DNA from: Octopus sinensis | Lineage: Eukaryota | Assembly (NCBI RefSeq): GCF_006345805.1 | Contig: NW_021825365.1 | Coordinates: 1-15,805, forward strand | DNA: 15,805 nt | Direction of reading: 5' to 3' | In this document: piece after piece, positions 2,726-8,562 of the stretch | How positions within the stretch are numbered: position 1 is the first letter of the stretch | Layout: every line of letters starts with the position of its first letter | Notes under the pieces: model-generated | Database searches by the model: none | What the model was told of the DNA's origin: nothing | What the model saw: the letters and a program-made list of their open reading frames with translations, nothing else | Translations under genes and position numbers: made by a program

Positions 2726-2813
2726 ATGTAGTACGACAGTTTCATGCGACGCCATTTAATTGAACAATGCAATTATTACATCAATTTAAATGCAGAGCTA
2801 TCCTCAGCTGCAT
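2726..2813 (-). ncRNA. Hammerhead ribozyme-like motif (family 2), minus-strand arm
   Basis: Minus: atgcag CTGAGGA [long stem II] GAAA C tgtc GTA ctacat; stem I has one mismatch. Confidence 0.65.
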
Positions 2814-2846
2814 TAATAAATAGAATTCTATCTATTTTATTTATTT

Positions 2847-2934
2847 ATGTGGCTGAGGATAGTTCTGGATTTAAATTGATGTAATGATTGCATTGTTCAA
2901 TTAAATGGAGTTGCTTGAAACGGTTGTACTGCAT
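2847..2934 (+). ncRNA. Hammerhead ribozyme-like motif (family 2), plus-strand arm
   Basis: atgtgg CTGAGGA(2853-2859) ... GAAA(2917-2920) C ggtt GTA ctgcat; stem I is 6 bp with two G-U pairs; predicted cut after 2928. Confidence 0.68.
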
Positions 2935-3140: not shown

Positions 3141-3141
<1 letters not shown>

Positions 3142-3680
3142 GTATTTCATCTATCTTTACATTCTGAGTTCAAATTCCTGATGTCGATGTTGCCTTTCAT
3201 TCTCTCAGGGTCAATTAAATAAGTACCAGTTACACACTGGGGTCGATATAATCGACTTAATCTATTTGTCTGTCCTTGTTTGTCCTCTCTGTGTTTAGCC
3301 CCTTGTGGTTAGTAAAGAAATAAGTATTTCATCTATCTTTTCATTCTGAGTTCAAATTCCACGGAGGTCAACTTTGCCTTTCATCCTCTCAGGGTTAATA
3401 AATTAAGTACCAGTTGCATACTAGGCCAATCTAATCGACTGGGCCCCTGCCTCAAATTTTCTGTCCTTGTTTGTCCTCTCTGTGTTTAGCCCCTTGTGGT
3501 TAGTAAAGAAATAGGTATTTCATCTATCTTTACATTCTGAGTTCAAATTCCACCGAGGTCGACTTTGCCTTTCATCCTCTCGGGGTCGATAAATTAAGTA
3601 CCAGTTGCATACTGGGGTCGATCTAATCAACAGGGGCCCCTCCCTCAAATTTCCAGGCTTAGTGCCTAGAGCAGAAAATA
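3141..3680 (+). mobile_element. Three head-to-tail, 5'-truncated copies of SINE family C
   Basis: gtatttcatctatcttt..attctgagttcaaattcc starts at ~3142, 3324 and 3515. The shared central motif gcctttcatcct..ggggtcgataaa..agtacc also occurs in the copy with a head at 13639-13836. Confidence 0.85.
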
Positions 3681-6823: not shown

Positions 6824-7003
6824 AGGCACAGGAGTGGCTATGTGGTAAGTAGCTTGCTTACCAACCACATGGTTCCGGGTTCATTCCCACTGCGTGGCAC
6901 CTTGGGCAACTGTCTTCTACTATAGCCTCAGGCCGACCAAAACCTTGTGAGTGGATTTGGTAGACGGAAACTGAAAGAAGCCTGTCGTATATATATGTAT
7001 ATA

Positions 7004-7043
<40 letters not shown>

Positions 7044-7258
7044 GTTTGTGTGTCTGTGTTTGTCCCCCTAGCATTGCTTGACAACCGATGCTGGTGTGTT
7101 TACATCCCCGTCACTTAGCGGTTCGGCAAAAAAGACAGATAGAATAAGTACTGGGCTTACAAAGAATAAAGTCCCGGGGTCGATTTGCTCGACTAAAGGC
7201 GGTGCTCCAGCATGGCCGCAGTCAAATGACTGAAACAAGGAAAAAAGAGTAAAGAGAG
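6824..7258 (+). mobile_element. SINE family A, full length (tRNA head, CORE-like motif, internal microsatellite)
   Basis: A box tggctatgtgg, B box ggttcattccc, CORE-like ggcaccttgggcaa, tail aaagag; probable TSD agctat (6818-6823) / agttat (7259-7264). Confidence 0.93.
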
Positions 7259-7827: not shown

Positions 7828-8195
7828 TGCTGACAACTGATGTTGGTGTATTTCTCCGTCAGGGTTGCGGATCTGTGGAATAAGCTGCCGGATGAGATAG
7901 TGAAGATGCCGATGACCGCTCGGTTCAAATCTCTCTTGACCAGAAATGGCCTGAACTCTGCATGAACACCCTCCTTGTACATGTCCCCCTACATGGCCTT
8001 GCTTTTTGCTTTTTGAGCCAAAAAATTAACTTAACTTAACTTAACATCCCTGTAACTTACCAGTTCGGATAAAAGACCAATAGAATAAGTACTAAGCTTC
8101 CAAAGAATAAGTCCTAGGGTCAACTTGTTCGACTAAAGGCGGTGCTCCAGCATGGCTACAGTCAAATGACTGAAACAAATAAAAGAATAAAAGAA
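7828..8195 (+). mobile_element. 3' half of SINE family A, split by a LINE insertion
   Basis: tgacaactgatgttggtgtattt (to 7853) resumes as acatccctgtaactta at 8044. Confidence 0.88.
7852..8045 (+). mobile_element. 5'-truncated CR1/L2-group LINE: ORF2 C-terminus, 3' UTR and (TTAAC)4 tail
   Basis: Frame from 7852 reads FSVRVADLWNKLPDEIVKMPMTARFK, then after a frameshift SLDQKWPEL. This matches the CR1 ORF2 terminal motif FSxRVxxxWNxLPxxVV...FKxxLD. Confidence 0.85.
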
Positions 8196-8221
8196 TTATG
8201 CTATTTCTAGCAGATGGATAT

Positions 8222-8270
8222 CCACCACTGAGGATGAGCACAAGGAGCTTGAAACCATACGGTCTGGTGG
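8222..8270 (+). ncRNA. Type I hammerhead ribozyme (family 4), near canonical
   Basis: Stem I ccacca/tggtgg (6/6); CTGAGGA 8228-8234; extra U; stem II gagc/gctt; GAAA 8251-8254; stem III acc-atac-ggt; GUC site after 8264. Confidence 0.82.
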
Positions 8271-8416
8271 TCTTGTCACTGAAAGACAGTAGGGGTTCAC
8301 TCCCTTACATGCAATATTTATCAGGTGCAGATTGCATTGATTAATCACCTGGTGAAGGCGTTCTCCTGGAGTTAAAACAGTAGTAATTCATATTTGTCCT
8401 CATCTTGTTTGTTGTT

Positions 8417-8462
8417 AACACAACATTTCGGCAGATATACCCTCCAGCCTTCTTCAGGGGTC
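8417..8462 (-). ncRNA. Minimal hammerhead motif (family 5)
   Basis: Minus: gaccc CTGAAGA a ggctg..ctgcc GAAA tgtt gtgtt. The vestigial stem III (AAYGTT palindrome) is typical of Penelope minimal hammerheads. Predicted cut at 8422/8421. Confidence 0.7.
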
Positions 8463-8511
8463 TTGGGGAAATTTTGAACCTGGGTTCTCATTCCTAAGGT
8501 ATTTATCGATG

Positions 8512-8528
8512 TTATTATTATTATTATA

Positions 8529-8561
<33 letters not shown>
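8512..8561. repeat. (ATT)n microsatellite
   Basis: Direct observation. Confidence 0.95.

Positions 8562-8562
<1 letters not shown>

Follow-up and report, generated by a model that had tools for sequence, protein, structure and literature searches.

At positions 8222 to 8270 on the plus strand of Octopus sinensis contig NW_021825365.1, the stretch analyzed here (15,805 nucleotides, hereafter the window) can be folded as a hammerhead, which raises the question of whether this is a ribozyme retained by its host or the relic of a mobile sequence. The initial annotation took the motif for the best candidate for an active self-cleaving ribozyme in the window, and proposed that it could cut any plus-strand transcript, for example an intronic one, after 8264. 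Our analyses make the relic highly probable. The type I hammerhead lies in a repeat of ~357 bp, old and non-coding, whose copy here is truncated and mutated; a Penelope-like retrotransposon likely spread this repeat, and the window copy is predicted to be a weak cleaver at best.

The hammerhead motif at 8222 to 8270

The structural elements of the motif, with the basis of each assignment where it applies, are as follows.

8222 to 8270, plus strand: type I hammerhead, a three-way junction with the cut predicted after C8264 (sequence, HH9 alignment, shuffles)
8222 to 8227 with 8265 to 8270, plus strand: stem I, CCACCA with UGGUGG, six Watson-Crick pairs (sequence)
8228 to 8234, plus strand: hammerhead core CUGAGGA (sequence)
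8235, plus strand: extra U, placed after A9 and before G10.1 (63 of 66 family copies have T)
8236 to 8250, plus strand: stem-loop II, 8236 to 8239 with 8247 to 8250, four pairs (sequence)
8251 to 8254, plus strand: GAAA of the hammerhead core (sequence)
8254 to 8263, plus strand: stem III and dimer palindrome, 8254 to 8256 with 8261 to 8263, three pairs, loop AUAC (sequence)
8262 to 8264, plus strand: GUC cleavage triplet (sequence)
8213 to 8277, plus strand: extended stem I, with an internal loop UAU (8219 to 8221)/U (8271) followed by a distal helix
8213 to 8218 with 8272 to 8277, plus strand: distal stem I helix (HH9 alignment)

In the window copy, CUGANGA, GAAA and UH lie at a three-helix junction with stem I open, as defines a type I hammerhead, and the complete core, 6-bp stem I, 3-bp stem III with tetraloop and GUC triplet reported initially can all be read in the sequence from 8222 to 8270. 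A strict hammerhead descriptor matched once in the window and in none of 300 dinucleotide shuffles. If the fold were a chance match, this would agree with its Rfam result, which was far under threshold (Hammerhead_HH9 only, 16.9 bits versus a gathering score of 52, E value of 0.16; the scan of the whole window gave no hammerhead among 86 rows), and with the folding prediction, in which the minimum is 2.5 kcal/mol below the hammerhead fold and the pairing of stem III is near 0.01. However, a better-preserved relative scored equally low in Rfam (HH9, 17 bits), and low predicted stem III pairing was common to the repeat family described below (median of 0.0 in 62 copies). Considering the shuffles, the number of copies aligned (66) and the compensatory change in stem II, a chance match was ruled out by the family alignment, and its probability is practically nil.

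Elsewhere in the window, degenerate hammerhead-like motifs in an inverted or repeated arrangement were observed at 2786 to 2934 (plus strand) and 11073 to 11132 (minus strand), and others were recognized by eye near 14087 to 14210 and 11185 to 11235; two of these other motifs passed the loose scan only, and none the strict one.

The ~357-bp repeat family

The genome is large (2.7 Gb) and repeat-rich. A family search with 8170 to 8330 as the query gave 255 candidates, of which 40 were scored; the other copies were 78 to 86% identical to the window copy, and no search returned another copy above 86%. One 30-mer occurred exactly eight times genome-wide, two of these within the first 61 insertions, which suggests a rough total of a few hundred copies. 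The family is old and apparently extinct. Tandem self-repeats with offsets of 334 to 364 bp were present in seven loci, and two ribozymes stood in tandem, 357 to 372 bp apart, in four. Three units had a GC content of 0.44 to 0.46 and a longest ATG open reading frame (ORF) of 24 to 63 aa, and the unit falls within the bounds of non-LTR retrozymes (150 to 450 bp, GC content below 50%, non-coding); one unit folded at a z score of −2.4, with 1 of 100 shuffles equally good. Arrays were short, with 34 of 124 blocks exceeding one unit, one reaching two and the window copy remaining under one. The loci were chosen by similarity, so that intact and long copies are over-represented. We found no description of the 357-bp family in the hammerhead, Penelope, retrozyme and octopus literature, although Repbase, Dfam and the supplements of PMC7229834 and PMC4209133 may list it; a squid genome paper gives 235 Hammerhead_1 matches.

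Among 66 copies, the pair equivalent to 8238/8248 was C-G in 30, G-C in 20 and something else in 16. Judged from the alignment, this pair defines two subfamilies (A and B) through one inherited compensatory event rather than many. Once 10 copies with indels or truncation had been set aside, 57 of the 67 extracted remained, among them one duplicate; 85% of their cells paired, versus 13 to 42% for slid partners. Together, the compensatory pair and the pairing excess suggest that selection acted on the fold in the past. CpG columns of the family alignment departed at 24 to 34%, and non-CpG departures amounted to 25/439 in the core, 32/446 in loops, 108/1042 in stems and 229/1398 in flanks. The core was thus below stems and flanks, but the searches favored intact ribozymes and the loops were about as low as the core, so that these values give no sign of selection after insertion.

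The strict core was intact in 21 of the 66 copies, G10.1-C11.1 was present in 37 and the palindrome was intact in 22. The features by which the motif had been singled out were found together in five copies, three of which (L007, L020 and L047) are in a better state than the window copy; all three retain G10.1-C11.1, and L020 and L047 the palindrome as well. As a "best candidate", the motif therefore stands within the window, where it alone satisfies the strict descriptor, but not beyond it. At the equivalent of 8229, C4 was observed instead of U4 in subfamily A (CG in 12, TG in 10 and CA in 4 of 30 copies), and TG was found in 17 of 20 copies of subfamily B, that of the window. C4 appears to be ancestral in subfamily A, so that CpG decay can restore a canonical-looking core; U4C lowers hammerhead activity in vitro (PMC3088659).

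State and predicted activity of the window copy

The sequence at 8222 to 8270 belongs to a decayed, 5'-truncated repeat copy and is no specially preserved ribozyme. Its surroundings comprise four parts.

8041 to 8194, plus strand: SINE-like repeat of high abundance, 3' fragment adjoining the repeat copy at its 5' end (75 to 87% to five other window copies)
8193 to 8390, plus strand: left part of the 5'-truncated ~357-bp repeat copy (76 to 79% to the unit of L028 at 8193 to 8386)
8391 to 8879, minus strand: later SINE-like insert (target duplication, inverted piece, very high copy depth)
8891 to 8929, plus strand: right part of the split repeat copy (79 to 90% to family copies)

Overall, the copy spans ~8193 to 8929 with a ~0.5-kb insert and amounts to about two thirds of one unit; the best other copy is 81.7% identical to its left part, and its right part ends at unit position ~211, a hot spot for short 3' ends in the family. 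The fragment at 8041 to 8194 is headless, the head being present in the SINE-like copy at 6826 to 7253. The insert is bounded by an 11-bp target duplication (8380 to 8390 and 8880 to 8890, 10 of 11 identical, one mismatch) and has a 33-bp inverted piece of its own (8390 to 8422 and 8778 to 8810); a tRNA-like head was read by eye, and ARAGORN found no tRNA in 8391 to 8879. Within the window, no second repeat copy for a cis dimer was found, and an inverted head-to-head arm is absent at the window's own copy. As side observations, a hammerhead-like core was seen near 8458 to 8428 on the minus strand of the insert, which may represent another Penelope-mobilized family; a short frame, which we take to resemble the C terminus of CR1/L2 LINE proteins, is followed by a TTAAC tail at 7840 to 8045; local tandem arrays with a ~190-bp period occupy 529 to 1169 and 3141 to 3652; and degenerate telomere-like repeats lie at 12356 to 12455.

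By its 8238/8248 pair the window copy belongs to subfamily B, from whose commonest letters it differs at 12 of 83 columns. The extra nucleotide noticed between A9 and stem II is the U at 8235, a family trait and no mutation of the window copy. Stem II does have the four pairs ascribed to it, but the first is G·U where most copies carry the quasi-conserved closing pair G10.1-C11.1; the change responsible, 8250 C>T, leaves the stem at −1.8 versus −3.4 kcal/mol in L002. The single departure from the palindrome, correctly spotted, is 8257 G>A, which breaks the dimer palindrome (predicted self-duplex of −4.8 versus −16.4 kcal/mol). Both changes fit CpG decay, given the departure rate of CpG columns, and two larger sequencing runs list no other letter at either position, which gives weak support to their not being assembly errors. 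Moreover, the distal stem I is reduced to two Watson-Crick pairs, three wobbles and one mismatch, with a mean pairing probability of 0.05 versus 1.0 in L002, and loop 2, ACAAGGA, is unique to the window copy (ACAAAGA or ACAAATA in the family).

For an active ribozyme retained to cut a host plus-strand transcript, such as an intronic one, after 8264, one can cite the intactness of every conserved core nucleotide and of the six Watson-Crick pairs of stem I, the 3- to 4-fold increase that an extra U at this place gave in trans-cleavage by the CChMVd (viroid) hammerhead (PMC3705267), and an axolotl hammerhead whose helix II has a basal U·U and which still cleaved 22% in 1 h (PMC7229834). An intact core is, however, found in 21 of the 66 copies, and core positions depart about as often as loop columns, so that selection on the window copy is not needed. 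The copy is also changed at 10.1-11.1, in the palindrome, in loop 2 and in distal stem I, while it is tertiary contacts between loops 1 and 2 that give activity at low Mg2+ (PMC3088659), and its hammerhead fold is not the predicted minimum. No gene was recognized among 44 frames of at least 70 aa, short exons being possible, and the SINE-like fragment upstream has no head. The position after 8264 is the correct site to predict for the cut, but a host transcript or intron around the motif was not found within the window, and cutting of plus-strand RNA in vivo is therefore unsupported. In two runs guessed to be RNA, no contig lay over 8208 to 8368 at 88% likeness and the flanking repeats were covered; such contigs show presence only, so that this speaks neither for nor against expression. 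A retained, host-serving ribozyme is very unlikely.

Weak cleavage in vitro by the window copy is nevertheless plausible. We rather expect detectable cleavage at 10 to 20 mM Mg2+, while efficient cleavage at 1 mM or less would be surprising, and any role in the cell is highly improbable and unsupported. Hammerhead motifs of the Penelope type cleaved poorly, even as dimers (PMC4209133), and the literature searched, passages of PMC2837043 and PMC544870 included, yielded no kinetics for a G·U pair at 10.1-11.1.

Insertion architecture, mobilization and known systems

The architecture of the insertions bears on how the family spread. Of the first 61 insertions, 24 carried a head-to-head inverted copy at the 5' end and none a tail-to-tail one, and over all loci the counts were 34 of 90 and 0. 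Among these 34, one short and one long 3' end were combined in 14, and in 17 the arms on both sides ended at the short or the long site; the loci beyond the first 61 came from a query that stopped at the long site, which biases their 3' ends. In the first 61 insertions, the 3' ends clustered at unit positions 200 to 219 and 260 to 279 (26 and 21 of 85, i.e., 47/85 in two 20-bp bins); the 5' ends, in contrast, were spread. Microsatellites lay within 60 bases of 34 of 123 3' ends versus 518 of 4,160 random windows, and no poly(A) tail was present among the listed 3' ends. The family thus combines 5' truncation, a fixed 3' end, partial tandems, an inverted 5'-truncated copy and one-end extension, matching the Penelope insertion traits listed in section 6 of PMC8557442. 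Five of 124 blocks start at unit positions 43 to 47, near the predicted cut; L031 and L092 start no more than 2 nt from it, and three others inspected are diverged or deleted upstream. With two such cases among those inspected, 5' ends at the cut site were too few to be taken as a cleavage signature. Family copies span the cut site intact, so that the template would have been a circle or an uncleaved multimer.

Penelope-type frames are present in this genome, with 147 GIY-YIG matches among 150 scored and both RVT_1 and GIY-YIG in L074. Many GIY-YIG matches shared an identical score, at least six of them in 781-aa open frames on several contigs, and these equal-score frames suggest a recently active Penelope family. 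At L071, L074, L083 and L086, a hammerhead-like motif of the minimal kind, with U3 and A8, was observed in the Penelope 3' ends, 78 to 120 bases before the 3' microsatellite; covariation of U3 and A8 in the core is reported for Schistosoma Penelope elements (PMC4209133). One insertion joins a Penelope fragment to the repeat unit.

L056:910-1874 (G000:C2:119324820 onward): composite insertion, Penelope fragment on the minus strand

Here a 5'-truncated GIY-YIG Penelope fragment (C terminus plus 3' untranslated region) is fused head-to-head to the unit with no spacer; the junction has an overlap of 2 to 4 bases, and both outer ends run into microsatellites. Among relatives of the fragment, the CxxxxCxxC linker of the Neptune/Nematis type was found in 4 of 30 loci. 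The simplest reading is a single template-switch event. The Penelope family involved is 88 to 91% identical and the repeat unit of this composite up to 84%; the former looks younger, so that two separate insertions into one microsatellite are possible.

We propose that multimeric transcripts of former master copies would have cleaved themselves at GUC, either as monomers through loop 1-loop 2 contacts, which are presumed for this family by analogy, or as dimers joined by the palindrome of 10 nt. The resulting RNA of ~357 nt would probably have circularized. Priming by a Neptune/Nematis-type Penelope reverse transcriptase (RT)-endonuclease may then have occurred at one fixed position, ~170 nt 3' of the cut, with no more than two units being copied and a 5'-truncated copy frequently added in inverted orientation. 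We lean toward regarding the family, whose copies bear every insertion mark of Penelope elements, as fossil evidence that Penelope machinery moved a retrozyme, and L056 as a template switch during which a single Neptune/Nematis-type RT copied its own RNA and that of the retrozyme. If true, animal non-LTR retrozymes would thereby have a named autonomous partner, at present a conjecture in the literature consulted.

Two other accounts of the spread have to be weighed against Penelope-driven movement of a retrozyme. Considering that the flanks were only ~1.5 kb long and ~90 insertions were sampled, the unit might derive from an autonomous Penelope element, as its pseudo-LTR (pLTR) or a remnant of its 3' end, the coding part having escaped sampling. 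However, the unit is repeated head-to-tail at a spacing of ~357 bp without an intervening ORF; of 104 loci, just two matched a Penelope protein, in one case inverted and in the other ~400 bp away, and none had a collinear RT plus GIY-YIG ORF; 20 GIY-YIG loci lack the unit, as do 29 of the 30 loci of the L056 Penelope family; and the Penelope families seen have a different, minimal hammerhead variant. This account is accordingly unlikely. The other is that an ordinary LINE (CR1/L2/RTE) or amplification at the DNA level moved the retrozyme-like repeat. LINE twin-priming inversions are not expected to give two arms that both end at these two 3' sites, yet half of the inverted insertions have arms ending at the short or the long site on both sides; neither the lack of poly(A) among the listed 3' ends nor the Penelope fragment in the one composite favors such a route. 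What speaks for it is that no sequence is common to the unit and Penelope 3' ends (against 18 of the latter no clear likeness emerged, the best being reached by 2 of 100 shuffles) and that such repeats carry no motif naming their partner (PMC7761336). On balance, we consider it a little less probable still than the remnant account.

Along its whole length, the Rfam model Hammerhead_HH9 (RF02275) can be aligned with the extended type I layout, but at 17 bits versus a gathering score of 52; HH9 represents an intronic locus conserved in amniotes, the window motif a transposon copy. Taken alone, this copy matters little, since animal genomes hold thousands of such motifs; the family matters more. 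In size, composition and ribozyme frame, it resembles the non-LTR retrozymes of coral, mussel and axolotl (Cervera and de la Peña 2020, PMC7229834), whose type I hammerhead has a helix I of 6 bp, a helix II of 4 bp and a helix III that is short and palindromic, and whose non-coding units of 150 to 450 bp (350 to 390 in mussel), with a GC content below 50%, stand head-to-tail. Further marks of this class are abundant circular RNA and, when present, a target duplication longer than 4 bp. Unlike these retrozymes, the family has the extra U after A9 and, commonly in subfamily A, C4; it forms only partial tandems (coral arrays range from dimers to 62-mers), has inverted 5' arms of the Penelope type, looks extinct and is known here from DNA alone.

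With the minimal pLTR hammerheads of Penelope elements (Cervera and de la Peña 2014, PMC4209133), the family shares the nucleotide between 9 and 10.1, the palindromic helix III region, the G10.1-C11.1 norm and mostly dispersed, truncated copies. It differs from them in having a 6-bp helix I plus distal helix and a 4-bp helix II (4 to 5 and 7 to 8 bp, respectively, in the minimal type), a helix III and flanks with no RT-endonuclease ORF. As in Penelope-like elements of the Neptune/Nematis clade (Craig et al. 2021, PMC8557442), 5' truncation, partial tandems, an adjacent inverted 5'-truncated copy, one-end extension and a microsatellite bias are found, whereas the family is without an ORF and has two 3' ends ~55 to 60 bp apart rather than a tail of 30 to 40 bp. 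The mobilizer of animal retrozymes is described as unknown, Penelope elements having been proposed from co-occurrence alone by the group that defined these retrozymes (PMC7229834, PMC7761336). The insertion architecture, as read from the genome, supports that idea; it constitutes a direct genome-only test, favorable here and repeatable on the retrozymes of coral, mussel and axolotl, in a family whose ribozyme mixes a retrozyme-type frame with a Penelope-type extra nucleotide.
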